Assembly: GCF_051903065.1 (NCBI RefSeq)
Contig: NZ_CP178438.1
Strand: one strand, 5' to 3'
From: Escherichia coli
Lineage (GTDB): Bacteria; Pseudomonadota; Gammaproteobacteria; Enterobacterales; Enterobacteriaceae
Length of the DNA stretch: 64,000 nucleotides
Shown here one piece after another: positions 24,736-55,478 of this stretch. The stretch's first letter is position 1, and every line of letters starts with the position of its first letter. The position numbers and the translations under genes were made by a program. Below the pieces are notes generated by a model. The model did not search any database and had not been told where the DNA came from. It worked only from the letters and a program-made list of their open reading frames with translations.

Positions 24736-26814
24736 ATGTCATATACACCGATGAGTGATCTCGGACAGCAAGGGTTGTTCGACATCACTCGGACACTATT
24801 GCAGCAGCCCGATCTGGCCTCGCTGTGTGAGGCTCTTTCGCAACTGGTAAAGCGTTCTGCGCTCGCCGACAACGCGGCTATTGTGTTGTGGCAAGCGCAG
24901 ACTCAACGTGCGTCTTATTACGCATCGCGTGAAAAAGACACCCCCATTAAATATGAAGACGAAACTGTTCTGGCACACGGTCCGGTACGCAGCATTTTGT
25001 CGCGCCCTGATACGCTGCATTGCAGTTACGAAGAATTTTGTGAAACCTGGCCGCAGCTGGCCGCAGGTGGGCTATACCCAAAATTTGGTCACTATTGCCT
25101 GATGCCACTGGCGGCGGAAGGGCATATTTTTGGTGGCTGTGAATTTATTCGTTATGACGATCGCCCCTGGAGCGAAAAAGAGTTCAATCGTCTGCAAACA
25201 TTTACGCAGATCGTTTCTGTCGTCACCGAACAAATCCAGAGTCGCGTCGTTAACAATGTCGACTATGAGTTGTTATGCCGGGAACGAGATAACTTCCGCA
25301 TCCTGGTCGCCATCACCAACGCGGTGCTTTCCCGCCTGGATATGGACGAACTGGTCAGCGAAGTCGCCAAAGAAATCCATTACTATTTCGATATTGACGA
25401 TATCAGTATCGTCTTACGCAGCCACCGTAAAAACAAACTCAACATCTACTCCACTCACTATCTTGATAAACAGCATCCCGCCCACGAACAGAGCGAAGTC
25501 GATGAAGCCGGAACCCTCACCGAACGCGTGTTCAAAAGTAAAGAGATGCTGCTGATTAATCTCCACGAGCGGGATGATTTAGCCCCCTATGAACGCATGT
25601 TGTTCGACACCTGGGGCAACCAGATTCAAACCTTGTGCCTGTTACCGCTGATGTCTGGCGACACCATGCTGGGCGTGCTGAAACTGGCGCAATGTGAAGA
25701 GAAAGTGTTTACCACTACCAATCTGAATTTACTGCGCCAGATTGCCGAACGTGTGGCAATCGCTGTCGATAACGCCCTCGCCTATCAGGAAATCCATCGT
25801 CTGAAAGAACGGCTGGTTGATGAAAACCTCGCCCTGACCGAGCAGCTCAACAATGTTGATAGTGAATTTGGCGAGATTATTGGCCGCAGCGAAGCCATGT
25901 ACAGCGTGCTTAAACAAGTTGAAATGGTGGCGCAAAGTGACAGTACCGTGCTGATCCTCGGTGAAACTGGCACGGGTAAAGAGCTGATTGCCCGTGCTAT
26001 CCATAATCTCAGTGGGCGTAATAATCGCCGCATGGTCAAAATGAACTGCGCGGCGATGCCTGCCGGATTGCTGGAGAGCGATCTGTTTGGTCATGAGCGT
26101 GGGGCTTTTACTGGTGCCAGCGCCCAGCGCATTGGTCGTTTTGAACTGGCGGATAAAAGCTCCCTGTTCCTCGACGAAGTGGGCGATATGCCACTGGAGT
26201 TACAGCCGAAGTTGCTGCGTGTATTGCAGGAACAGGAGTTTGAACGCCTCGGCAGCAACAAAATCATTCAGACGGACGTGCGTCTAATCGCCGCGACTAA
26301 CCGCGATCTGAAAAAAATGGTCGCCGACCGTGAGTTCCGTAGCGATCTCTATTACCGCCTGAACGTATTCCCGATTCACCTTCCGCCACTACGCGAGCGT
26401 CCGGAAGATATTCCGCTGCTGGCGAAAGCCTTTACCTTCAAAATTGCCCGTCGTCTGGGGCGCAATATCGACAGCATTCCTGCCGAGACGTTGCGCACCT
26501 TGAGTAATATGGAGTGGCCGGGTAACGTACGCGAACTGGAAAACGTCATTGAGCGCGCGGTATTGCTAACACGCGGCAACGTGCTGCAGCTGTCATTGCC
26601 AGATATTGCTTTACCGGAGCCTGAAACGCCGCCTGCCGCAACGGTTGTCGCCCAGGAGGGCGAAGATGAATATCAGTTGATTGTTCGCGTGCTGAAAGAA
26701 ACTAACGGCGTGGTTGCCGGGCCTAAAGGCGCTGCGCAACGTCTGGGGCTGAAACGCACGACCCTGCTGTCACGGATGAAGCGACTGGGAATTGATAAAT
26801 CGGCATTGATTTAA
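24736..26814 (+). CDS. fhlA: Sigma54-dependent formate hydrogenlyase transcriptional activator FhlA
   Basis: ORF 24700..26814; start at MSYTPMSDLGQQ (692 aa); two GAF-like domains, AAA+ ([14 protein letters not shown]), C-terminal HTH. Confidence 0.93.
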   Translation: MSYTPMSDLGQQGLFDITRTLLQQPDLASLCEALSQLVKRSALADNAAIVLWQAQTQRASYYASREKDTPIKYEDETVLAHGPVRSILSRPDTLHCSYEEFCETWPQLAAGGLYPKFGHYCLMPLAAEGHIFGGCEFIRYDDRPWSEKEFNRLQTFTQIVSVVTEQIQSRVVNNVDYELLCRERDNFRILVAITNAVLSRLDMDELVSEVAKEIHYYFDIDDISIVLRSHRKNKLNIYSTHYLDKQHPAHEQSEVDEAGTLTERVFKSKEMLLINLHERDDLAPYERMLFDTWGNQIQTLCLLPLMSGDTMLGVLKLAQCEEKVFTTTNLNLLRQIAERVAIAVDNALAYQEIHRLKERLVDENLALTEQLNNVDSEFGEIIGRSEAMYSVLKQVEMVAQSDSTVLILGETGTGKELIARAIHNLSGRNNRRMVKMNCAAMPAGLLESDLFGHERGAFTGASAQRIGRFELADKSSLFLDEVGDMPLELQPKLLRVLQEQEFERLGSNKIIQTDVRLIAATNRDLKKMVADREFRSDLYYRLNVFPIHLPPLRERPEDIPLLAKAFTFKIARRLGRNIDSIPAETLRTLSNMEWPGNVRELENVIERAVLLTRGNVLQLSLPDIALPEPETPPAATVVAQEGEDEYQLIVRVLKETNGVVAGPKGAAQRLGLKRTTLLSRMKRLGIDKSALI

Positions 26815-26858
26815 CAGATGTGGTTATACTCGATCAACATTCAATGAAAGGAGGCAGT

Positions 26859-27287
26859 ATGGCAGTTTCAGCAAGAAATCAATTAACCGGAACAGTTAGC
26901 GCAGTAGCAATGGGCGCGGTGAATGACGAAGTAGAACTGACGCTGGCAGGTGGTGCAAAGCTGGTGGCAATTGTGACTCACAGCAGCCAGCAGGCTCTGG
27001 GTCTGGCGAAAGGGAAAGAAGCGATTGCCCTGATTAAAGCCCCGTGGGTAACGCTGGCAACGGAAGACTGTGGACTGAAATTCTCTGCTCGCAACCAGTT
27101 TGCTGGCAGCGTGTCGACAATCACCGAAGGCGCAGTGAACGCCACTGTCCATATCAAAACGGATGCGGGTTTTGAAATTGTGGCAGTGGTAACAAATGAA
27201 AGTCAGGATGAAATGAAACTCACCACTGGCTCACGCGTTATTGCATTGATCAAAGCATCAGCCATCCTGATTGCCACCAAAGCGTAA
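26859..27287 (+). CDS. Tandem Mop/TOBE-domain molybdate-binding protein (two ~70-aa repeats)
   Basis: ORF 26820..27287; start chosen at ATG 26859 after AGGAGG RBS (MAVSARNQLTGTV...); internal duplication SARNQLTGTVSAV / SARNQFAGSVSTI typical of Mop repeats; 45 nt downstream of fhlA stop. Confidence 0.75.
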   Translation: MAVSARNQLTGTVSAVAMGAVNDEVELTLAGGAKLVAIVTHSSQQALGLAKGKEAIALIKAPWVTLATEDCGLKFSARNQFAGSVSTITEGAVNATVHIKTDAGFEIVAVVTNESQDEMKLTTGSRVIALIKASAILIATKA

Positions 27288-27298
27288 ACGCCTTATTT

Positions 27299-27321
27299 GC
27301 CGGAGAGTATGGCTCTCCGGC
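27299..27321 (+). terminator. Stem-loop terminator after the Mop gene
   Basis: GCCGGAGAG-tatgg-CTCTCCGGC, perfect 9-bp stem followed by a T-rich tract on the + strand. Confidence 0.6.
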
Positions 27322-27325
27322 AGAT

Positions 27326-27670
27326 TTATTTCTTTGGACGATATTTTTCTGGCAACTCCGGCACCGGACGCTTGTCATCGATGAGATGACGCACGGTTAA
27401 GATCGGATGACGCCACAGCATTCTCGGCCCGGCCCAACGCATAATCTGTTTCATCTCTTCACGCTTTGCAGGCTGGTAACAGTGCACCGGACACTGCTTA
27501 CAGGCTGGTTTCTCTTCGCCGAACACACATTTATCCAGCCGCTTTTGCGCGTAAGCAAACAACGCCTCGTAATGCTCCGGCTCCGCTGACGCCTGCGGGC
27601 ATTTCGCTTGATAAAGATCGATCATTTTTTTAATCGTCAGTTTTTCACGAGAGATACGCTTGCCGGACAT
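27326..27670 (-). CDS. ygbA: Cys-rich protein YgbA (function unknown; nitrosative-stress regulon member)
   Basis: 114 aa with conserved cysteines (CPQ...CKQCPVHC); divergent from mutS; upstream inverted repeat TTAAGATGCATTT...ATCTTAA at 27686-27718 resembles an NsrR-type operator. Confidence 0.8.
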   Translation of the reverse strand: MSGKRISREKLTIKKMIDLYQAKCPQASAEPEHYEALFAYAQKRLDKCVFGEEKPACKQCPVHCYQPAKREEMKQIMRWAGPRMLWRHPILTVRHLIDDKRPVPELPEKYRPKK

Positions 27671-27956
27671 GCTGCCTCCATCTCATTAAGATGCATTTAT
27701 ATTACAACTTAATCTTAAAGGGCACTATGACTCTAAAGAAGAAGGGTTCGCCAACCGATACAATTTTGCGTACTTGCTTCATAAGCATCACGCAAAAGCT
27801 GCAAAACAGCATCTTTCCCGGAACCAGCATCAAGAACTCGCCGTTCGCTTCTTCCCCTGAAATGATTAACTCCGGTATCATGTGCGCCTTATGTGATTAC
27901 AACGAAAATAAAAACCATCACACCCCATTTAATATCAGGGAACCGGACATAACCCC

Positions 27957-31567: not shown

Positions 31568-32995
31568 TTATTTACGTGCAGCCAGCATAGCGGTCAGTTT
31601 TTCAGCCCAGGCTTTGGTTTCCGGCAAATCCACCACCGGCTGGCTGTAGTGACCACGGTTGTCCGGGGCGACAGGCGTGGTGGCGTCGATAATCAGCTTG
31701 TCGGTGATCCCCGCCGGGCTTGAGCCAGGGTCGAGTTCCAGCACGGACATATTCGGCAACTGCACCAAATCCCCTGCCGGATTTACTTTCGAGGAGAGCG
31801 CCCACATCACCTGCGGCAGGTTGAACGGGTCAACGTCTTCATCGACCATAATCACCATCTTTACGTAGCCCAGACCGTGCGGCGTGGTCATCGCACGCAG
31901 GCCCACCGCGCGGGCAAAGCCGCCGTAGCGTTTTTTGGTGGAGATAATCGCCAGCAGGCCGTGGGTGTACATGGCGTTTACCGCCTGCACTTCCGGGAAC
32001 TCGGCTTTCAGTTGTTGATACAGCGGTACGCAGGTGGCTGGCCCCATCAGGTAGTCGATTTCGGTCCACGGCATGCCGAGGTACAGCGATTCGAAAATCG
32101 GCCTGGTGCGGTAAGAGACTTTATCGATGCGCACCACGGTCATGTTACGCCCGCCGGAGTAGTGTCCGGTAAACTCACCGAACGGCCCCTCGATTTCGCG
32201 TTTACGGCTTTCGATGACCCCTTCGAGGATCACTTCTGAACCCCACGGCACATCAAAACCGGTCAGCGGGGCGGTGGCGATCGGGTACGAGCTTTCACGC
32301 AGCGCGCCTGCCATTTCATACTCAGACTGATCGTATTTCAGCGGCGTGGCCCCCATCAGCGTGATGATCGGATCGTTACCGAGCGTGATGGCAATCGGCA
32401 GATCTTCACCGCGCTCTTCTGCTTTATGCAGATGCAGGGCGATATCGTGCATCGGCACCGGTTGCAGGCCGAGCTTACGCTTGCCCTTCACTTCCATGCG
32501 GTAGATGCCGACGTTCTGCTTGCCGAAGTTATCTGGGTCGAGCGGATCGCGGGAAACCACGCACGCTTTGTCGAGATAGAAACCGCCATCACCGTCGTTT
32601 AAACGAAACAGCGGCAGGATATCGAACAGATTAATCTCGTCACCATCGACGGTGTTCTGCGCCCAGGCTGGATTGGCGCGGCGCTCCGGGGCGATCGGGA
32701 AGTTATCCCAGCGGCGGATAAACTCATCAATCTGTTTTTTAACCGGGGTGTTTGGCGGCAGGCCCAAGGAAATCGCGTGGTTCTGCCAGGAACCGATGGT
32801 ATTCATCGCCACGCGGGCATCGGTAAAACCGCGAATATTATCAAACCACAGCGCCGGTGCACCATCGCCGATACGCCCGGTGGCGTTGGCAGCGGCAGCC
32901 AGATCCGGTTCCGCGTTCACCTCTTCGCTGATTTTCAGTAACTGGCCGTGGTCATCAAGCGCCTGTAAAAAGCTGCGTAAATCATCAAATGCCAT
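31568..32995 (-). CDS. ecdC: UbiD-family (prFMN-dependent) aromatic acid decarboxylase, subunit C
   Basis: 475 aa UbiD-like translation; operon order B-C-D on minus strand. Confidence 0.8.
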   Translation of the reverse strand: MAFDDLRSFLQALDDHGQLLKISEEVNAEPDLAAAANATGRIGDGAPALWFDNIRGFTDARVAMNTIGSWQNHAISLGLPPNTPVKKQIDEFIRRWDNFPIAPERRANPAWAQNTVDGDEINLFDILPLFRLNDGDGGFYLDKACVVSRDPLDPDNFGKQNVGIYRMEVKGKRKLGLQPVPMHDIALHLHKAEERGEDLPIAITLGNDPIITLMGATPLKYDQSEYEMAGALRESSYPIATAPLTGFDVPWGSEVILEGVIESRKREIEGPFGEFTGHYSGGRNMTVVRIDKVSYRTRPIFESLYLGMPWTEIDYLMGPATCVPLYQQLKAEFPEVQAVNAMYTHGLLAIISTKKRYGGFARAVGLRAMTTPHGLGYVKMVIMVDEDVDPFNLPQVMWALSSKVNPAGDLVQLPNMSVLELDPGSSPAGITDKLIIDATTPVAPDNRGHYSQPVVDLPETKAWAEKLTAMLAARK

Positions 32996-33588
32996 TATTC
33001 ATTCTCCTGAGAAAAATTCCGGGCCTGCGGCAATCCTTGCCAGCGCCTGGCGTGGGGATGTTCGAGGCCAAATTGATCCAGCACGCGGGCTACTACATGG
33101 TGGACAATGTCATCTACCGTTTCGGGATGGTTATAAAAGGCAGGCATCGGCGGCACCATCGCCACGCCCATGCGTGAAAGTGCGAGCATATTTTCGAGAT
33201 GGATGGTGCTAAGCGGCATTTCACGCGGCACCAGCACCAGTTTGCGGCCTTCTTTGAGCACGACGTCCGCCGCGCGCCCTACCAGGCCATCAGCGTAACC
33301 AGCGCGGATACCGGCGAGCGTTTTCATACTGCACGGAATAACGATCATGCCGTCGGTACGAAAGGAACCTGAGGAGATGGTCGCCGCCTGATCCGCCGGG
33401 TTATGGCTGAAGTCAGCGAGGGCAGCAACATCGCGGGCGCTGTAAGGCGTTTCCAGTTCAATGGTGGTTTTCGCCCACTTCGACATCACCAGATGAGTCT
33501 CGACATTCGGCATCTCCCGCAGCGCTTGCAGTAATGCCACACCAAGAGGCGCACCGGTAGCCCCTGTCATCCCGACGATCAGTTTCAT
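32995..33588 (-). CDS. ecdB: UbiX/Pad1-family flavin prenyltransferase, subunit B
   Basis: 197 aa; N-terminal MKLIVGMTGATGA flavoprotein motif typical of UbiX. Confidence 0.8.
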   Translation of the reverse strand: MKLIVGMTGATGAPLGVALLQALREMPNVETHLVMSKWAKTTIELETPYSARDVAALADFSHNPADQAATISSGSFRTDGMIVIPCSMKTLAGIRAGYADGLVGRAADVVLKEGRKLVLVPREMPLSTIHLENMLALSRMGVAMVPPMPAFYNHPETVDDIVHHVVARVLDQFGLEHPHARRWQGLPQARNFSQENE

Positions 33589-45341: not shown

Positions 45342-45858
45342 GGGTGTTCTACCGCAGGGGCGGGGAATTCTCAGTGATATCCATCATCGCATCCAGTGCG
45401 CCCGGTTTATCCCCGCTGGCGCGGGGAACACGTGTGGCACTCTGCGTCTGGTATTAAATCATTCGGTTTATCCCCGCTGGCGCGGGGAACACCCGCCACG
45501 CCGTGCGCATCAACAGATATACGCAGGTTTATCCCCGCTGGCGCGGGGAACACAAACCGAAACACACGATCAATCCGAATATGAGCGGTTTATCCCCGCT
45601 GGCGCGGGGAACACCGAAAAGGCACCGTGCCGGTGACGTTCAATTCCGGTTTATCCCCGCTGGCGCGGGGAACACCGTTTTCACTCACTGGCAATCTCCG
45701 AGCAGAGCGGTTTATCCCCGCTGGCGCGGGGAACACGTGCGAATACCGTGTAAAAAATTAGTGTTATTCGGTTTATCCCCGCTGGCGCGGGGAACACTCA
45801 CGGTAGCGCCACTGCGCGTCGGTGACGGGCGGTTTATCCCCGCTGGCGCGGGGAACAC
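45342..45858 (-). CRISPR. Type I-E CRISPR array: 8 canonical 29-bp repeats plus one degenerate terminal repeat, 8 spacers
   Basis: Repeat on + strand CGGTTTATCCCCGCTGGCGCGGGGAACAC at 45403, 45464, 45525 (first base A), 45586, 45647, 45708, 45769, 45830; 61-bp period; degenerate iap-proximal repeat 45342-45370 matches 19/29; spacers 32 bp; leader at the high-coordinate end, so crRNA is read from the minus strand. Confidence 0.97.
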
Positions 45859-45954
45859 ACTAAGCATACATATCTGTTTTTAAACAAATTTATTCCACAT
45901 CAACAATCTACCAACTAAATTCAAACATTTCCTTATTTTTAAAGAACACATAAC
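45859..45954 (-). promoter_or_regulatory. CRISPR leader (AT-rich, carries the array promoter)
   Basis: 96-bp AT-rich segment between cas2 stop and the leader-proximal repeat. Confidence 0.8.
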
Positions 45955-47164
<1,210 letters not shown>

Positions 47165-47168
<4 letters not shown>

Positions 47169-47815
47169 ACCTCTGCTCCGGGTTTGATCAGCATCAGACC
47201 ACAGCCGAACGCGCGGCTTTTGCCATACCCCTGACTGAGACGTTGCAGAAATAACCCGGGATCGGTGACCGTAAGCATCCCCGTATAATCCACGCTACTG
47301 AACTGGATCAGTTGCCGGGAGTTTTCCCGCCGCAGTTGCTGTTGTCGGTAGGCATCAACCGAGGTATCCAGCAGTGTAAAACCGCTTCTCTCCCCCTGCG
47401 CTGCCAGCCAGTCCAGCGCCGCCTGTTGTTGATGCAACCAGACATCACGCCCTTCCGCCTGTCCCCTCACCTGCCGTTTCGCCTCCATCAGCAGATCGTG
47501 GCGCTTGCCCGCTTTACAAATTGTGGGATTCGCCCGCAGGTTGAAACAAAGGGATTGTCCGGTACGCAGCTCCGGAGCAAATGACCGGCATTCGATAGTG
47601 AAAGTTTCACTTTCCGCCGGGCGTTCCTGCGAGAGGACAAAAAAGCGAAACGCACCCTGAAGTTCCTCCCGACGATAAAGAAATTGCCTTTCTTTGCCGC
47701 CAGGGAAGAGATCCCACAGCCACTGATGCATCACATATTCACCGCGATCCACCAGATGCAGCAACTGCGCAGGCAAAAGCTGAGCGGTATGTAAGGTTAT
47801 TCTTGAGAGGTACAT
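47165..47815 (-). CDS. casE: Cas6e (CasE) crRNA endoribonuclease
   Basis: ORF 47165..47953; start placed at MYLSRITL (ATG 47815, AGGAGG RBS), 216 aa; C-terminal glycine-rich segment GYGKSRAFGCGLM. Confidence 0.88.
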
Positions 47816-48543
47816 GGTTCCTCCTTGCTGAGCCACGGCCCCTGATTGACGGTGCGTTCCCCAAACAGCCACTGCTGGCGATTTAAAGGAACATCCCGGC
47901 GGCGTAATATTTTGCTCACGACCAGGCCGTCGTGCTCCCCTTCCCACCAGCATTCATCCTGAAGTTTCGGGAGTGAGACTTTCAGGTCGTGGAAATGATC
48001 CTGATACTGTTGGTATGCGTTACGTAAAACATCAGACGCGTTGCCTTCGAGCAGTAACGGCGCAAGTGGTAATGCCAGCGGATGACTTTTTCGCCCCAGA
48101 TAAAGAGGAAAAACTGGATGGCGTAAACCGCCCTGCAACTGTTCGAGGCTGTAAGGCGCATCGGCTGTTGTTGCCACCGCCACCATCCACCAGGCGTCGG
48201 TGTAGTAGTCGCGCCGGGAGATAATCGCGCTCAGAAGATCAGAGTCGCTCAACTCTTCGCGACGGCTGAAATAACGCGCTTTGCGCACCTCTTTTGGCAT
48301 CTGGATCGTGTGATAATCCCGTGCCCAGCGCGGGTTACGGCTGGCGCAAACCACCAGTGAATAGTGGCGATTAAACGCGTTTAAGCGTTCGGTATCATCA
48401 CGCCGAATCCCTACCCCGGCAGCCAGCAGACCCAGCAATGCTGAGCGCGAAGGCAGTTCATGGGTATGACGCACTTCGCCGGGGGCATCGACGCCCCAGG
48501 ATGCCATTGGCCCATGAAGCTGAAAAATCAGATATTGGCTCAT
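47797..48543 (-). CDS. casD: Cas5e (CasD) Cascade subunit
   Basis: 248 aa; N-terminus MSQYLIFQLHGPMASWG. Confidence 0.88.
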   Translation of the reverse strand: MSQYLIFQLHGPMASWGVDAPGEVRHTHELPSRSALLGLLAAGVGIRRDDTERLNAFNRHYSLVVCASRNPRWARDYHTIQMPKEVRKARYFSRREELSDSDLLSAIISRRDYYTDAWWMVAVATTADAPYSLEQLQGGLRHPVFPLYLGRKSHPLALPLAPLLLEGNASDVLRNAYQQYQDHFHDLKVSLPKLQDECWWEGEHDGLVVSKILRRRDVPLNRQQWLFGERTVNQGPWLSKEEPCTSQE

Positions 48544-48553
48544 AAGCCGCCCC

Positions 48554-49609
48554 TTACGCGCAGATAAAGTCCAGTACGTCCTTCATGCTTCCCTGTTTGT
48601 TCATCACGTCAAAACTTGCGCATTCAGTCTTCTGTTCGTAGACCGTATTCATGTTTTCGCGAAGCGTTGTAATACGCTGCACCGCCACATCTAACTGACG
48701 GGTACCATTAATGGGTTCATAGAAAGCCGCCGCCAGAGAACGCGGTTGATCAGTGCCTTTTTCCGCCAGCGCCCAGGAGGCGTAGGCACGGCTGGCAAAG
48801 CTATTTTGTTTACCGGTTGGGGAAACTTTAAGCGCGGCTTCCGTAAAAGCGCGTATGGTCTGATTAGCTAACGCTTCGTCACCGCCGAGGTTTTCTACCA
48901 GCAGATCTTTATCAATGCAGATATAGGTGTAGAAAAGTGCTGAACCGAATCCGGTTTCTCCGAGATGCCCGGCACCGGCATCTTCAGAGGCCTGGCGCAA
49001 ATCATCAACGGCGGTGAAAAAATCATCTTCGACAATCGTTTCACTGACACCAAACGCATGCGCGACCTGGCAGGCGGCTTCAACATTAAACTCAGGTTTA
49101 TTCGCCAGCATACGACCAAACATAGCGATATCTACCGCTATACGGTCTTTACGTAACAACGCGAGATCTTCCTCTTTTGGCGCGCGCTTTTCTTCTGCCA
49201 GTTGATGGGCCAGCGCTTTTACGGCGTCAAATTCTGCCGGGCTGATATGAACTAATTGTTCAGTTTCGGCGTTAGTGAGCGGATCTTTTGGTTTTTTGTC
49301 GTTTTTAGCTTTCCCAAGATAATCTGCAATTTTTGCCGCCCATTCGATGGCTTTTTTCTCTTCGATTCCTTTCTCAATCAGGATAGTTGCCGCCTCACGC
49401 GCAATTCGCCCACTGCGAATACCAATATGGCCCGCCAGTGCCTGTTCAAAAAGTGCAGAAGTGCGCCACGCACGTTTCAGACTTTGTGAGGAAACGCGCA
49501 GACGCGTTGCACCACCCAGTACCACAGTTTTTGGCGCACCAGTATCATCACGGTTAAGGTTGGCAGCAGGGTAAGCGGTTAACAAATGAAGCTGAATAAA
49601 TGTTGTCAT
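48554..49609 (-). CDS. casC: Cas7e (CasC) Cascade backbone subunit
   Basis: 351 aa; N-terminus MTTFIQLHLLTAYPAANLNRDD. Confidence 0.9.
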   Translation of the reverse strand: MTTFIQLHLLTAYPAANLNRDDTGAPKTVVLGGATRLRVSSQSLKRAWRTSALFEQALAGHIGIRSGRIAREAATILIEKGIEEKKAIEWAAKIADYLGKAKNDKKPKDPLTNAETEQLVHISPAEFDAVKALAHQLAEEKRAPKEEDLALLRKDRIAVDIAMFGRMLANKPEFNVEAACQVAHAFGVSETIVEDDFFTAVDDLRQASEDAGAGHLGETGFGSALFYTYICIDKDLLVENLGGDEALANQTIRAFTEAALKVSPTGKQNSFASRAYASWALAEKGTDQPRSLAAAFYEPINGTRQLDVAVQRITTLRENMNTVYEQKTECASFDVMNKQGSMKDVLDFICA

Positions 49610-49620
49610 GAGATAGTCCT

Positions 49621-50160
49621 TTATTGATTTTGTTCGTTATCGGCGTCGCCAGCCTGGTAATATTCCAGCGCCCAGCGGATACGGATAAATTCGGTTGGCC
49701 GCTGCTGGCGGCGGTGATGATTGAGCAGGTCGTCGCTCTCCTGACACCAGCGGAAAATATCGTCTGCCAAAGAGATAAGATTGACGGAACCGTTTAATAA
49801 TTTGACTGCGCGTCGTAACTGGCGCAGTAATTCATCCGGCGTTTTTACTGCCGACAGGCAAGTAAAACGCCCCTCTGACATTACCGCCGCCAGCTGTGCG
49901 GCAAAAGGCTGCCGTTCATCAATGGCTTTAACATTGGCGGCAACGGCGGCGACCAGTGCCAGTGCGGTAAAACGCCACTCTTGTGCTTCAATTTTCCACA
50001 AAGTGTGGGTCTGCATCAGCAGAGAACGAAACCCTTCTGACAAGCAAACATCATTAACCGTTGTGCTACGCCGCAGACTGGCACGATTGCCGCGTTTAGC
50101 CTGCAACTCTTCGTGCCATTTACGCAGCGTGGCTTTGTGCCCGTCTTTTACAATACTCAT
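49621..50160 (-). CDS. casB: Cse2 (CasB) Cascade small subunit
   Basis: 179 aa; position between cse1 and cas7; 4-nt overlap with cse1 stop. Confidence 0.85.
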   Translation of the reverse strand: MSIVKDGHKATLRKWHEELQAKRGNRASLRRSTTVNDVCLSEGFRSLLMQTHTLWKIEAQEWRFTALALVAAVAANVKAIDERQPFAAQLAAVMSEGRFTCLSAVKTPDELLRQLRRAVKLLNGSVNLISLADDIFRWCQESDDLLNHHRRQQRPTEFIRIRWALEYYQAGDADNEQNQ

Positions 50161-51719
50161 TCAGCAGCCTCCTGCTTTTTCTCCCTGGCGGCTTTAGCAC
50201 TTTGCTTCTCCGCCGATGTTGTAAAATATTTTTTGCGCGCGGTCATGACGCGTTTTAAATCAACGGGCTCATAAGGATTGGTGAATACACGCTCGTCAAA
50301 ATCCTGACGCGAGAATAACCAAATCTCCTTATTCCATTTGCTGAGTAATTCATCCGCATCCTGACCTTCTTCAATTTGGCGCACTAACCTCAGGAAGCGA
50401 TGCTGAGTTTTGTTCCAGAAGTCGATATCCACAAAACTGAAATCACCCCGTGCACCTTTTGGATCGGAGAACCATGCTTCTTTCAATGCACTCCGTAACA
50501 GACTTAGAATGCGTGAAGCCGTTTGCGCAGCCAGCCGCAGTTTCGGTATCTGGCCTTCTTTTTTATTGAGCAGCAGCGGGAAACGGTGTTCGTACCAACA
50601 GCGGGCTTTCATGTTGTCGAAATCATAGCCAAATCCCCATAGGCCTACTTTTGCCTGCTTGAGACTGCTGGCATTAAAGAGTTTCACCACCAGAGCGGGA
50701 AGTTCCGTATTGTTTTCTGACTTACCCGTTTCGATAAGGCCTAACCAGTCGCGCCAAATTAAACCGCCTGGTTGTGGTTTAACTGAGTAAAACTCGCCAC
50801 CCTCTTTAAGTGGTACACGGTAAGGCGTTAATGGATGCTGCCACATGGCATAATTCGCACCGTAATTTTTGGTCGTCATCAGGCTCAGAAGCGCGTCGTC
50901 CTGCTCACCGCAAATATCGCAGTTGCCGACTGTCGTGGTATTAAAATCAATACGAATACGCCGCGGCATTCCCCAGTACGCCTGGAGTTTATTGACCTGA
51001 TCATCGGTTACCACCGCACCGGCCAGTTCGCTGGTACGCGTCGGGCCAAGCCAGGGGAAAACCAGATCGTCAAATTTTTTGGGTAGCGGTAAGTCGGCTT
51101 CATCCTGCGGCATCACGTTGAGCCACAGTTTGCGCCACAAGGGGGCTTGTTGATTGCCCTGATACTCCTGCAATTCAATCAGAGTCGTCATCGGCCCACC
51201 GCCGCGTAAACCGGTTCGGTAGCCTTTGCCGCCTGACGGTGCATTTAACTGTAGGGAGAACAGAGCTAACGCGGAACAATGAGGGCATACGTGTTCAGTC
51301 ACGCCACGCTTAATAAAGTGGTCTTTATTAAACTTCGTTGTTTGAGCGCCGGGAATCTCAGGCAGTAATGAAGCAACCTGAACTTTATCTCCCGTGAGCG
51401 CCTCGAAATCCTGCATAAATGAAGGGGAATCTGGCCCAAACTGGAAAGCATGTTCTAAAGACAGCAATGCTTCCCGTAGCTTTTCGGCTTCCAGTCCGTC
51501 TTGCCAGATATCATCCCAACGACCATGATTTTTGGGCGCGAAACTGGTTTGTAGTAGCCCCAGTAAAAACTGCCATGCTGCTCCCTGGAGATCTGCTCGT
51601 GGCGCAGCGATATCGACAACATTTTCATCAGCCAGATCGACTGGCGCCAGTTTGCCTGTCGTTCCGTCTTTAAAACGAACGGGCAACCACGGGGTTGTCA
51701 GAAGTGAAAACGAGTTCAT
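50157..51719 (-). CDS. casA: Cse1 (CasA) Cascade large subunit
   Basis: ORF 50157..51725; start preferred at MNSFSLLTTPWLPV (ATG 51719, 6-nt spacing from GAGAGG); 520 aa. Confidence 0.88.
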   Translation of the reverse strand: MNSFSLLTTPWLPVRFKDGTTGKLAPVDLADENVVDIAAPRADLQGAAWQFLLGLLQTSFAPKNHGRWDDIWQDGLEAEKLREALLSLEHAFQFGPDSPSFMQDFEALTGDKVQVASLLPEIPGAQTTKFNKDHFIKRGVTEHVCPHCSALALFSLQLNAPSGGKGYRTGLRGGGPMTTLIELQEYQGNQQAPLWRKLWLNVMPQDEADLPLPKKFDDLVFPWLGPTRTSELAGAVVTDDQVNKLQAYWGMPRRIRIDFNTTTVGNCDICGEQDDALLSLMTTKNYGANYAMWQHPLTPYRVPLKEGGEFYSVKPQPGGLIWRDWLGLIETGKSENNTELPALVVKLFNASSLKQAKVGLWGFGYDFDNMKARCWYEHRFPLLLNKKEGQIPKLRLAAQTASRILSLLRSALKEAWFSDPKGARGDFSFVDIDFWNKTQHRFLRLVRQIEEGQDADELLSKWNKEIWLFSRQDFDERVFTNPYEPVDLKRVMTARKKYFTTSAEKQSAKAAREKKQEAAE

Positions 51720-52115
51720 ACGCATCCTCTCGTAGAAAAGACCATCCCTGGTCGGTTGTCCATCACCATATTTTCAGATTTAGTTGGAGACTTAATCTGA
51801 GTCGGATAAAAGAAAAGACGTTGAATGTGATACGAAAATCGAACTTAGTTTGTCGTTTTGAAAGCAGACTTAGCACAAGTTGAAGCAAAAAAATCGACAA
51901 CATCGTAGTCCTCTTCACCGCAGCTTTTCACCGGTCACGAAAATACGCCTTGTAACGGTGTGACTCAACTCCGGATCCGGACATTATTTAAAATCTTTGT
52001 TTCTCATTAACTCATAGCAATTACCCATCTATCATAATCACAATAGCATTGATAAAATAAATCCATTCCCTGATTCTAGGGATTAACCAAGTTAGTGAGA
52101 TACAAAAATTGGTTC

Positions 52116-52144
52116 CTGTTCCCCGCGTCAGCGGGGATAAGCCC
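52116..52144 (+). repeat. Solitary CRISPR-repeat-like element in the cas3-cse1 intergenic region
   Basis: + strand CTGTTCCCCGCGTCAGCGGGGATAAGCCC matches the crRNA-sense repeat GTGTTCCCCGCGCCAGCGGGGATAAACCG at 25/29 with the stem intact; orientation is opposite to the array; followed by a perfect 10-bp hairpin at 52142-52165 that abuts the cas3 stop. Confidence 0.8.
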
Positions 52145-52169
52145 TGGCGTCATCCGACGCCAGGGCATC

Positions 52170-54869
52170 TCAATCAACCTTGCCAATCAATCCTTCCGTA
52201 GCCGAATACCCGCAGCTTTCGTCATCGGTGACTAAAATCACGTTTGCCATCTCCGGATCTTGCCGTTGTTCAATGCACCACTGCCTGAACGCTTCCCCTT
52301 CCAGTAAAGAAAATTCATCCCGATGTTTTTTCCACCAGCTTCGACGCACTCTGGCAACGCTCATTTCCCATGCGTGAGCACCGCTGGCATAAGGCTTCAC
52401 CACACCGTCAATACAGGTAGCCAGCCACAGGGAAACAGACTCTTCAGCCAGACGTGTCGACAGCTTTTCCGGGAGGTAATCGTTGATATTGGCGGCATAG
52501 CCGGGCCTGAAGTTCAGCATAAACTTTTTAGCCATTGCGCGATCGCAGTAATATTTGCCCACTTGCTCCTGCTCGCTGCGGGCAAATCCTTCCGGCATTA
52601 CCACGTCCTCACCGTAGACGGATTCAATAAGAAGCCGGGCTGCGTGTGGCATCTGAATAGCGCCTTGCTCACGCAATACTCGCTGCGTCAGCCAGATTCG
52701 CCCATGATCGGGGTAGACATATGCGCTGTTACGCATCGCACTACCAAACCATTCGTCACCCGGAGAGTCGTCCCAGACGGGGGCCAGAATCAGCAATTCA
52801 GGAGGGGAACGCTCGTCTTTTCCATCACGTTTTAACTGACCATTAATATCACGAATATGCCGTTGTAATCGCCCCGCTCGCTGGATCAGCAAATCAATGG
52901 GGGCCAGGTCGGAGATCATTTCGTCCAGGTCAATATCCACACTTTGCTCAATTACTTGTGTACAAACAATGACTTGAGATGATCTTTTTAAACTACAATT
53001 TTTACCAAAGCGTGCCAGCGTTTCCGTTTCAATTCGCTGGCGATCGCTAAAAGCAAAGCGGCTATGAAAAAGTGAAAGGCTGGAAGCAGGAATGACGCCG
53101 CGGGCAAGTAACTGACGATAAACCTTAATAGCGTCATCGACAGAATTCCGGATCCAGGCGATGCATTTCCCCTGACTTACCGCTGATTCGATACGCGCAA
53201 TACATTCTTGTTCGCTATGAAGCCAACCCACGCTCACGCTACGCTCAACGTCTTTGCGCGTCGCTACCCGGTGCGAATGCACATCGGATTTCGTGACATG
53301 CGTCAGCCAGGGGTAATCATCCTTTTCTAGGAACGGAGCTTCTTGCTGGCCCTCTGTGCCACGCGCAAAGGCGGCGACAAGTTTGTCGCGCTGCTGTTGA
53401 GATAACGTAGCAGAAAGCAAAATGACGCTGTTTCCGCCACGCACCTGTCGCTCAATCAACCCTTCAAGAATGTACGACATGTAAGCGTCACAGGCGTGGA
53501 TCTCATCAGCCAGCAGGATTTTGTTACTCAACCCCAGAAGCCGCAGATTATTATGTTTAAACGGCATCACTGCCATCATCGCCTGATCCAGCGTGCCGAC
53601 GCCAATTTCAGCCAGTAAAGCCTTCTTGTTACTGTCGGCAAACCAGGCTGCACATCCTTGACTGAACGCTTGTTCATCCGGTTCTTCTGACCCGACTAAA
53701 TCACCGGACCAGAGTGATTCATTAAAGCGTTCCATTAATGTACGGGCGCTGTGTGCCAGCACCAGGCTGGGGCGGGATTCTGGCGAAAAGAAAGCAAGCC
53801 AGGTTTTGACCAGCCGATCGTACATGGCATTGGCCGTTGCCATTGTTGGCAGGCCAAAAAACAAACCCTGAGCTTTATTCTCAGCCATCAACCTGTGCGC
53901 CAGGATAAGCGCCGCTTCTGTTTTACCTGCGCCAGTCACATCTTCCAGAATAAATAACTGTGGCCCTGGCTGGCTGATATCCAGATCCAGTACCTTTTGC
54001 TGTAATGGTGTCGGGTGCTCAATAAAAGGAAACAGCGTATTAATTCCGGTGAAAGGTGCGGTTTCTGCTTTTGGAGGAAAGACGGTTAAGGCGTTTTGAG
54101 CCTGAACTAAAGTTTTCTGCCAGTAATCTTTAATATTCATTGTCTGTGCGACGCGTGGAAAAAATCGCGTTGACGAACCCGTCCAGTCTGCGAGTACGAC
54201 TGTTGCAGAGATATACCAGGAAAGTTGTTTTAAAAGTTCAACGCCCTCGTCATCATCCCAGAATGTGGGAATCTCTATGAGCGGAAACAGTGACTTGATT
54301 TCAAGGAGAAAATCTCGTGCGGCAGCTTTGTCTTCAGGCAGGAAATTATCCAGTTCATCAATACGGTCAGGGGGCCGACCATGATGCCCGGTAGTCATGG
54401 GCATCCACATCGCTATTACACGTTTAAGTTTGCGAGTAGAGAGTGAAGAGGCAGGAAGCAATTCTTCGCATTCACTTAAATAATGATGCCACAACCAGTA
54501 GCCCAGCGTTGAATGAGAGATCTTTTCGTAATTCTTTCTTGCGCCTTCCGGAACCTTGAGTTGTGGGTGCAGGTAAAGTTGCTGAAATGAGCGGGCAAAT
54601 TTTCCAATATCGTGCCAGCACAACAACCAGGCGAAAAATTGAGCCGCCTGTTCCTTGTCAGAAATCCCTAATTGACGAAAATAATCAGCCAGCCCGAAGC
54701 AATTTCTTTTAACCATTAAATAGCCCATCGCGGCCACATCCAGCGAATGCCAGCAAAGAAGGTGATAGTCGTCACCCCCTTCTTTCTCGTCGCGTCGGGT
54801 TTTTCCCCAGAAATCAAAGAAAGTCACAATATTTTTATCCTTCAGTAAACTTAAAGGATATTTACGCAT
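52170..54869 (-). CDS. cas3: Cas3 HD nuclease / SF2 helicase (type I-E)
   Basis: 899 aa; N-terminal HD motifs (LLCWHSLDV, WHDIGKF), helicase Walker A GAGKTEAAL and DEIHA box; highly AT-rich upstream region. Confidence 0.92.
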   Translation of the reverse strand: MRKYPLSLLKDKNIVTFFDFWGKTRRDEKEGGDDYHLLCWHSLDVAAMGYLMVKRNCFGLADYFRQLGISDKEQAAQFFAWLLCWHDIGKFARSFQQLYLHPQLKVPEGARKNYEKISHSTLGYWLWHHYLSECEELLPASSLSTRKLKRVIAMWMPMTTGHHGRPPDRIDELDNFLPEDKAAARDFLLEIKSLFPLIEIPTFWDDDEGVELLKQLSWYISATVVLADWTGSSTRFFPRVAQTMNIKDYWQKTLVQAQNALTVFPPKAETAPFTGINTLFPFIEHPTPLQQKVLDLDISQPGPQLFILEDVTGAGKTEAALILAHRLMAENKAQGLFFGLPTMATANAMYDRLVKTWLAFFSPESRPSLVLAHSARTLMERFNESLWSGDLVGSEEPDEQAFSQGCAAWFADSNKKALLAEIGVGTLDQAMMAVMPFKHNNLRLLGLSNKILLADEIHACDAYMSYILEGLIERQVRGGNSVILLSATLSQQQRDKLVAAFARGTEGQQEAPFLEKDDYPWLTHVTKSDVHSHRVATRKDVERSVSVGWLHSEQECIARIESAVSQGKCIAWIRNSVDDAIKVYRQLLARGVIPASSLSLFHSRFAFSDRQRIETETLARFGKNCSLKRSSQVIVCTQVIEQSVDIDLDEMISDLAPIDLLIQRAGRLQRHIRDINGQLKRDGKDERSPPELLILAPVWDDSPGDEWFGSAMRNSAYVYPDHGRIWLTQRVLREQGAIQMPHAARLLIESVYGEDVVMPEGFARSEQEQVGKYYCDRAMAKKFMLNFRPGYAANINDYLPEKLSTRLAEESVSLWLATCIDGVVKPYASGAHAWEMSVARVRRSWWKKHRDEFSLLEGEAFRQWCIEQRQDPEMANVILVTDDESCGYSATEGLIGKVD

Positions 54870-55061: not shown

Positions 55062-55214
55062 CTACTTCTTCGATTCGTAAGCGAGAACAGCCTTAAACTC
55101 CATACCACGTTCTCTGATACTCAACTCACACAACGAGTCACCTACCATCAGCGTGAATCCCAGTACTGTACAACACAGTACGATGATTGCCACAAGGGCA
55201 TATTTTGTCAGCAT
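55062..55214 (-). CDS. Hok/Gef-family type I toxin (50 aa), HokE-like
   Basis: Not in ORF track (too short). ATG 55214 after GGGAGG; translation [50 protein letters not shown] with the Hok signature SLCE..R.G.E..A.LAYES.K; stem-loop GCGGGGGTAAAACCCCGC just downstream (55036-55055). Confidence 0.7.
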
Positions 55215-55478
55215 GTCTTGCCTCCCTGCAAAGAAGAGACTAACATTCGAATTGCTTAGGTTCGAACGCTGGCCTCAGGTTGATAGAAATATCGCCTGGG
55301 GCTTTTGTCCATCTGGAACCTCGCGAATGCTTAACGCCAGACAGCCTCAAGCACCCAACACCATTCTATACCTGTTAATTCTTCCAGCGGCGTTCACGTT
55401 TAAAATCAGGAATGCTGCTCGCAAAATAAAAACGCCCCCATCATTTCTGACAGAGGCGTTTAATTTATCCGGCAATAT

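Follow-up and report, generated by a model that had tools for sequence, protein, structure and literature searches.

A ModG-type molbindin gene next to fhlA, present in some Escherichia coli strains and deleted in K-12

The molbindin ModG of Azotobacter vinelandii forms a trimer that binds eight molybdate or tungstate ions. In the structure of the related protein Tub, the site on the threefold axis (type 1) is made by the backbone of A20-V21-N22, and the site at the interface (type 2) by S4, R6, S40, K60 and A61. These oxyanion sites resemble those of ModG, Mop and ModE, and the choice between molybdenum and tungsten is one that cannot be read from the sequence (PMC11980592). Molybdate also matters to formate hydrogenlyase, the synthesis of which depends on molybdate and on ModE (PMC3149613). 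That fdhF and hyc are expressed in a molybdate-dependent manner has been documented (PMC3149613 and papers cited there), and K-12 has an active formate hydrogenlyase (PMC3149613).

The locus described here lies in a window of 64,000 nucleotides of E. coli DNA (contig NZ_CP178438.1, assembly GCF_051903065.1), in which a gene for a standalone tandem Mop protein, here called mop, is found between fhlA and ygbA. The parts of the locus are the following:

24736..26814, + strand: fhlA, formate hydrogenlyase transcriptional activator, 692 aa (open reading frame; a 2,079-nt CDS in the RefSeq annotation of strain A16)
26815..26858, + strand: fhlA-mop spacer, 44 nt, with a conserved -10-like hexamer and the ribosome-binding site
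26825..26830, + strand: TATACT, a -10-like hexamer, 34 nt 5' of the mop ATG
26848..26854, + strand: ribosome-binding site AAGGAGG (direct reading of the sequence; graded strong)
26859..27287, + strand: mop (modG-like) CDS, 142 aa, standalone tandem Mop (TOBE) oxyanion-binding protein, RefSeq WP_000301062.1
27295..27335, + strand: intrinsic terminator, a hairpin with a T-rich tail, which also serves the convergent ygbA on the other strand
27326..27670, - strand: ygbA, 114 aa, nitrous oxide-stimulated promoter family (NCBIfam NF007713, 268.8 bits; annotation)

The mop gene, its product and its surroundings

The initial annotation had read from the DNA a 142-aa protein of two repeats with a ribosome-binding site of its own. 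The open reading frame matches exactly, running from an ATG at 26859 to 27287 on the + strand (MAVSARNQLTG...ILIATKA), and AAGGAGG does lie at 26848-26854. A pattern-dependent scan, with each bacterial species represented by one genome, found 49 orthologous loci. All of these share the identical ATG, the GGAG(G/A) core of the ribosome-binding site is kept across them, and 48 encode a product of 140-143 aa (the exception is one frameshifted copy); the 142-aa reading is therefore correct. A 155-aa version starting from a GTG at 26820, found in the mechanical list of open reading frames, was rejected because its upstream extension is unconserved, whereas the ribosome-binding site and the ATG are conserved. 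In Enterobacter sp. EA-1 (L045, 5001-5342) the mop frame stops after 113 aa and the flanking FhlA match is fragmentary; this interrupted copy is either a pseudogene or the product of a low-quality assembly.

That the protein is a tandem Mop/TOBE protein, as had been claimed, is borne out by profile, sequence-to-PDB and predicted-fold evidence, all of which agree on the molbindin ModG. The Pfam TOBE profile that had been proposed as a check (PF03459) matches residues 4-66 with an E value of 1.6e-17 and residues 76-137 with one of 6.2e-16, and the NCBIfam model TIGR00638, "molybdenum-pterin binding domain (Mop)", reaches 142 bits in two stretches, its cut-off being 55. The repeats are 43% identical to each other. 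Together the two TOBE domains cover the whole 142-aa protein, in which Pfam finds neither a helix-turn-helix nor an ABC ATPase. Among all PDB sequences, the best match is A. vinelandii ModG (1H9J/1H9K/1H9M; E 5e-33, residues 1-140), with 68 of 140 residues identical (49%). Second comes E. coli ModE, through its di-Mop domain (E 1.2e-15; 37% identical), ahead of single-domain Mop/Tub proteins. An AlphaFold2 model built from a 20-sequence alignment has a pLDDT of 95.4 and a pTM of 0.86, and Foldseek matches this predicted model to 1H9J with an E value of 9.5e-17, a TM score of 0.95 and an rmsd of 1.3 A. The evidence thus supports a ModG-type molbindin, that is, a standalone di-Mop protein of ~14 kDa. 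PADLOC gave no defence-system match for mop.

The repeats and their ligand positions, those of the second having been placed through a phmmer alignment of Tub chain residues 2-67 with query residues 74-139 (an offset of 72), are as follows:

26868..27056, + strand: Mop/TOBE repeat 1, residues 4-66; ligand positions S4, R6, A20-V21-N22, T40, K60 and A61
27084..27269, + strand: Mop/TOBE repeat 2, residues 76-137; ligand positions S76, R78, A92-V93-N94, T112, K132 and A133

Both repeats have the type-2 interface positions (equivalents of Ser4, Arg6, Ser/Thr40, Lys60 and Ala61) as well as a conserved type-1 Ala-Val-Asn, and the ligand positions of both are invariant or at least 90% conserved in the 20-sequence alignment (A2). 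The second Mop repeat of E. coli ModE, on the other hand, has lost its ligand motifs (NADN, NAD). By this measure the mop product is therefore ModG-like, not ModE-like. The linker between the repeats contains a cysteine, Cys71 (window 27069-27071; EDCG, EECG or ETCG), which is conserved in all enterobacterial orthologues of the alignment, from Escherichia to Edwardsiella, and is missing from A. vinelandii ModG (DSSG) and from the Burkholderiales and Fibrobacteres homologues.

The protein is not new to the databases. An identical sequence is in RefSeq as WP_000301062.1, "TOBE domain-containing protein", from strain A16, which is 100% identical over a 751-bp query made of the fhlA 3' end, mop and the ygbA 3' end. 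Other names are used within the 1,003-member 90% cluster ("molybdopterin-binding protein", "molybdenum-pterin-binding protein", "transporter", "molybdate transport system regulatory protein"), and in PMC7232297 the gene between fhlA and ygbA is named "modE". Could the product then be the transcriptional regulator ModE, or a fragment of a transporter or of ModC? Some of these names say so, and the ModE and ModC models do match in part, but only through their TOBE parts and far below their cut-offs. In the case of ModE, only positions 124-261 of the 263-position model match (88.1 bits against a cut-off of 369), and in the case of ModC/WtpC only the last ~65 model positions (47-49 bits against cut-offs of 285-440). 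With no helix-turn-helix, no ATPase domain and a length of 142 aa that is conserved among orthologues, the probability of such an identity is negligible, and the labels "ModE" and "transporter" are refuted by domain content. The "modE" of PMC7232297 is mop under a wrong name, and the label at the fhlA-ygbA locus is corrected accordingly. That paper is the sole mention of the gene in the literature searched on molbindins, the fhlA locus and molybdate/ModE, where no experimental study of the mop product was found: this is an annotated yet uncharacterised protein in a well-understood family.

How is mop placed with respect to its neighbours? The fhlA gene is immediately 5' on the same strand, its stop codon ending at 26814. 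The initial annotation put mop 45 nt after fhlA; the adjacency stands, but the spacer is really 44 nt, 45 being the offset. Spacers of 36-56 nt are found in 33 of 37 orthologous loci. In the window, a terminator scan found no terminator-like site in the spacer, which folds at the level of shuffled sequence (z = 0.42). The hairpin terminator said to follow mop is there: a 14-bp G+C-rich hairpin at 27295-27325, followed by TTATTTCTTT, folds at -25.4 kcal/mol (z = -4.9), equalled by none of 200 shuffles. Beyond it, ygbA is a convergent neighbour, outside the mop unit. Rfam at the gathering threshold found no structured RNA near 26.8-27.4 kb.

The spacer hexamer TATACT occurs at an equal distance from the mop ATG in Escherichia, Citrobacter and Pseudocitrobacter and at -46 in Kluyvera, while Pluralibacter-like taxa have TATAAA or TATAAC at -34. 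(The hexamer of Raoultella and Klebsiella was left out of the count because it overlaps the fhlA stop codon, GTATAA.) A sigma-70 scan found no -35 element and no full promoter in the spacer. The conservation of the hexamer suggests that it may be a candidate promoter element for mop itself, possibly a weak one. A ModE operator 5' of mop was considered but is not supported, and is no more than a lead. Compared by eye with CGTTATATTGTCGCCTACATAACG, which is found just upstream of modA in K-12 and is there presumably the ModE operator, the spacer sequence GGTTATACTCGATCAACAT matches in the left half only (6/8); the right half is degenerate, and it is unconserved in Kluyvera or Klebsiella.

Several other features were seen in the window. 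Between ygbA and mutS there is a 59-aa open reading frame (27702-27881, - strand), a hypothetical protein in RefSeq and without an NCBIfam match; at the corresponding position, the CDS of the K-12-like strain THB42-F3 is shorter (135 nt). In the variable segment that separates mutS/pphB from rpoS there is a VdcC/VdcB-like pair (UbiD/UbiX family) of hydroxyarylic acid decarboxylase genes (31568-33588, - strand), in place of which K-12 presumably has ygb genes. A CRISPR array of eight repeats (core GGTTTATCCCCGCTGGCGCGGGGAACAC) with 61-nt spacing lies at 45402-45869, with an iap-like gene on one side and, on the other, the cas genes of a type I-E CRISPR-Cas block (46245-54869, - strand). In this block Cas1e is matched by TIGR03638 with 379 bits, while Cas3, at 431 bits, falls short of the NF007248 cut-off of 569 and is therefore a diverged Cas3. 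Finally, a match to the sok antitoxin RNA (55199-55356, - strand; Rfam RF01794, 111.7 bits) indicates a chromosomal hok/sok locus.

Presence, loss and ancestry

The survey of presence and absence across E. coli that had been proposed at the outset found mop in 1,892 of 5,426 complete genomes, always as a single chromosomal copy and at full length in 1,889 copies. The remaining 3,534 genomes (65%) are without it. The carriers include NU14, E2348/69 and ATCC 25922 (presumably all phylogroup B2), ST648 (presumably phylogroup F) and an O166:H15 strain. The initial annotation had allowed that the gene might be present and merely obscure in K-12, the fhlA-mutS spacing appearing similar. Neither supposition survives: mop is deleted in MG1655, where fhlA ends at 2856416 and ygbA starts at 2856453, and the fhlA-mutS spacing there is 677 bp, as against 1,143 bp here.

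The mop-less allele is a clean 466-bp deletion that has brought fhlA up to a homologous terminator hairpin, with the fhlA stop codon 36 nt upstream of ygbA (GCCGGACAG...CTGTCCGGC at the junction, versus GCCGGAGAG...CTCTCCGGC in the window). The junction shows AAC microhomology only, and neither repeats nor mobile genes flank the mop segment. The same geometry is found in every sampled mop-less genome, O157:H7 and O111:H8 strains included, and the junction is identical between MG1655 and an unrelated record. To judge from these junctions, the data fit one 466-bp deletion allele in the E. coli lineages to which K-12, O157:H7 and O111:H8 belong. The mop+ and mop- alleles differ by a compensatory G/C exchange in the terminator hairpin (window 27295-27337 compared with L001 1616-1663 and with L052), and YgbA has 114 aa in the window (...RPKK*) versus 117 aa in K-12 (...RPKKPHE*); these differences suggest that the two haplotypes are old. 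Rare variant alleles also exist (hits H90, NZ_CP070152.1, and H30, NZ_CM177019.1). FDAARGOS_1285 matches mop over its first 126 nt only, and of the 751-nt query RMDEC465 matches no more than 122 nt on the ygbA side.

Was mop inserted in some lineages or deleted from others? Synteny was followed by tblastn with HypE, FhlA, YgbA and MutS of the window. In 37 loci, from at least 12 genera and about 37 species of Enterobacteriaceae, fhlA is directly 5' of mop, and hypE is upstream in nearly all of them. This arrangement is found in E. albertii, Escherichia sp. MOD1-EC7003, Citrobacter (8 species), Pseudocitrobacter, Raoultella, Klebsiella, Kluyvera, Enterobacter, Pluralibacter, Yokenella, Lelliottia and Kosakonia. 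Since the outgroups E. albertii and Escherichia sp. MOD1-EC7003 carry mop next to fhlA, the gene is ancestral for Escherichia, and the K-12-type state is a loss. [quoted passage not shown] Across the family, the pattern points to a gene that is ancestral in Enterobacteriaceae and was lost within E. coli. The polymorphism is thereby reinterpreted as a deletion from an ancestral state, not as an insertion. Recent horizontal acquisition was considered and rejected, because the GC content of mop (50.8%) is like that of its neighbours (52.1% for fhlA and 50.7% for ygbA), there are no flanking repeats or mobile genes, and the orthologues are syntenic in the outgroups. With dN/dS values of 0.03-0.11 against orthologues from E. 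albertii to Edwardsiella, mop is under strong purifying selection.

The association with fhlA is not absolute. In Raoultella sp. BIGb0138 and in Phytobacter/Kosakonia sp. S29, mop is kept while fhlA has been reduced to a 3'-end relic upstream, and Serratia, Cedecea and Edwardsiella have mop orthologues of 68-73% identity in unrelated contexts. Since mop is thus kept after the loss of fhlA or placed elsewhere, the protein is not tied to FhlA. No Salmonella locus was returned by the one-genome-per-species scan, which depends on sequence patterns, in agreement with the gene maps in PMC7232297. The same paper describes the fhlA-mutS interval as a hotspot of gene gain and loss (PMC7232297), and the 3-4 kb inserted between mop and ygbA in several genera (L011, L016, L018, L021 and L032) fit such a hotspot. 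In Raoultella sp. BIGb0138 (L014, 5687-9106), mop is followed by four open reading frames with the sizes of a sitABCD-like ABC transporter, the likeness being one of size alone.

A molybdate buffer and its alternatives

What might the mop product do? The most likely function, and one that is probable rather than assured, is that of a cytoplasmic molybdate (or tungstate) buffer, co-transcribed with fhlA and serving the molybdoenzyme FdhH. By homology, the protein would form a trimer, equivalent to a pseudo-hexamer of Mop domains, and would bind molybdate or tungstate at interface sites (Ser/Arg/Thr/Lys/Ala) and at threefold-axis sites (the Ala-Val-Asn backbone). The hyp promoters that drive the hyp-fhlA unit depend on formate/FhlA and on FNR, and a weak fhlA promoter drives it as well. 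The anatomy suggests that mop would be the last cistron of this unit, because its place is between fhlA and the terminator at which the unit stops in K-12, and as a last cistron it would be expressed under fermentative, formate-inducing conditions. It may also own a weak promoter, the conserved -10-like hexamer, which would leave room for independent transcription. Cytoplasmic molybdate that is buffered or stored in this way would keep molybdenum on hand for the insertion of molybdopterin cofactor into FdhH, and could also support the molybdate-dependent expression of fdhF and hyc.

A functional tie to formate hydrogenlyase is plausible on the evidence of gene order. In its favour are the conserved adjacency of fhlA and mop and the lack of a terminator between them; against it, 65% of complete E. 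coli genomes are without mop, and several taxa keep the gene after the loss of fhlA or elsewhere. At most, mop is accessory for formate hydrogenlyase and dispensable under laboratory conditions, since K-12 has an active enzyme without it. With two-thirds of complete E. coli genomes also without the gene, any contribution would have to be conditional, for example on molybdenum scarcity or exposure to tungstate.

Might the place after fhlA instead be a historical accident, at a locus prone to gain and loss, of a gene for general molybdate or tungstate homeostasis? The documented hotspot in the fhlA-mutS interval (PMC7232297) would allow it, as would the orthologues of Serratia, Cedecea and Edwardsiella in their unrelated neighbourhoods, the survival of mop beyond fhlA in Raoultella sp. 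BIGb0138 and Phytobacter, and the -10-like hexamer, through which the gene could be expressed independently. However, an accident sits poorly with an adjacency that has been kept, with a short and terminator-less spacer, in at least 12 genera despite highly plastic DNA downstream, and with an fhlA-unit terminator that is placed after mop, not before it. This explanation is accordingly rather unlikely, if worth keeping in mind. Less probable again, and distinctly doubtful, is that the mop product is a regulatory molybdate sensor and not a store, which once loaded would act with FhlA or with the ModE di-Mop domain to tune fdhF and hyc, and which would represent the ancestral route by which formate hydrogenlyase expression came to depend on molybdate. 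The tight and conserved adjacency is, after all, to a regulator gene and not to mod or moa genes; the 37% identity to the ModE di-Mop domain and the TM score of 0.88-0.90 (predicted model) make mixed oligomers conceivable; and formate hydrogenlyase gene expression does depend on molybdate (PMC3149613). Yet the protein has neither a DNA-binding nor any other effector domain, hyc expression in K-12 is molybdate-dependent without it, and mop persists where fhlA has been lost. The specific proposal that molybdate-loaded Mop acts on FhlA, or forms mixed oligomers with the ModE di-Mop domain, and so gates fdhF and hyc as an ancestral partner, is very unlikely. If it were true, K-12-type E. coli would have lost the Mop layer and would rely on ModE and MoeA alone, and the molybdate route to FhlA-dependent transcription, a long-standing question, would be testable with natural mop+ and mop- strains.

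The main value of mop is to show where K-12 is a blind spot for the physiology of molybdenum and formate hydrogenlyase. Nearly all studies of molybdenum homeostasis and of formate hydrogenlyase in E. coli have used K-12 or B strains, both of which are without mop, whereas about one-third of complete E. coli genomes and many other Enterobacteriaceae have an intact ModG-type protein at what would be the end of the hyp-fhlA unit. Tungstate is used experimentally to suppress enterobacterial molybdoenzymes. If the mop product buffers molybdenum or tungsten on behalf of FdhH, it could have an effect on tungstate tolerance and, in the gut, on the fermentative metabolism of hydrogen and formate, and would be a strain-dependent variable that K-12 models have missed.

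Comparison with known molbindins

Of the described systems, ModG of A. vinelandii is the closest. Like the mop product, it is a standalone protein of ~140 aa with two tandem Mop/TOBE repeats (cytoplasmic, in the case of ModG), and the two proteins share the SARN, T-x-x-S, KA and AVN motifs in both repeats. The genomic setting is different: the A. vinelandii modG gene presumably lies with mod genes, in a nitrogen fixer, whereas mop comes after fhlA in the hyp-fhlA unit, in enterobacteria that ferment. The linkers differ as well, DSSG in ModG corresponding to EDCG, with Cys71, in the mop product.

The C-terminal di-Mop domain of E. coli ModE (1H9R/1H9S, 1O7L, 1B9M) has the same fold as the predicted model (TM 0.88-0.90) and 37% identity, and its first repeat has the SARN, T-x-x-S and KAPWV motifs in common with the mop product. 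However, the N-terminal DNA-binding domain of ModE is absent from the mop product, and the ligand motifs lost from the second repeat of ModE are intact there.

MopII of C. pasteurianum (1GUG), Mop of S. ovata (1FR3) and Tub of E. limosum (9BEB) are storage proteins that share the same TOBE domain and the ligand positions of both types, 1 and 2, and the Tub positions S4, R6, A20-V21-N22, S40, K60 and A61 map onto both mop repeats. The Mop/Tub proteins, on the other hand, are single domains of ~70 aa that form hexamers, whereas the mop product fuses two such domains, so that a trimer would be the equivalent assembly. Tub has been shown to store tungstate physiologically.
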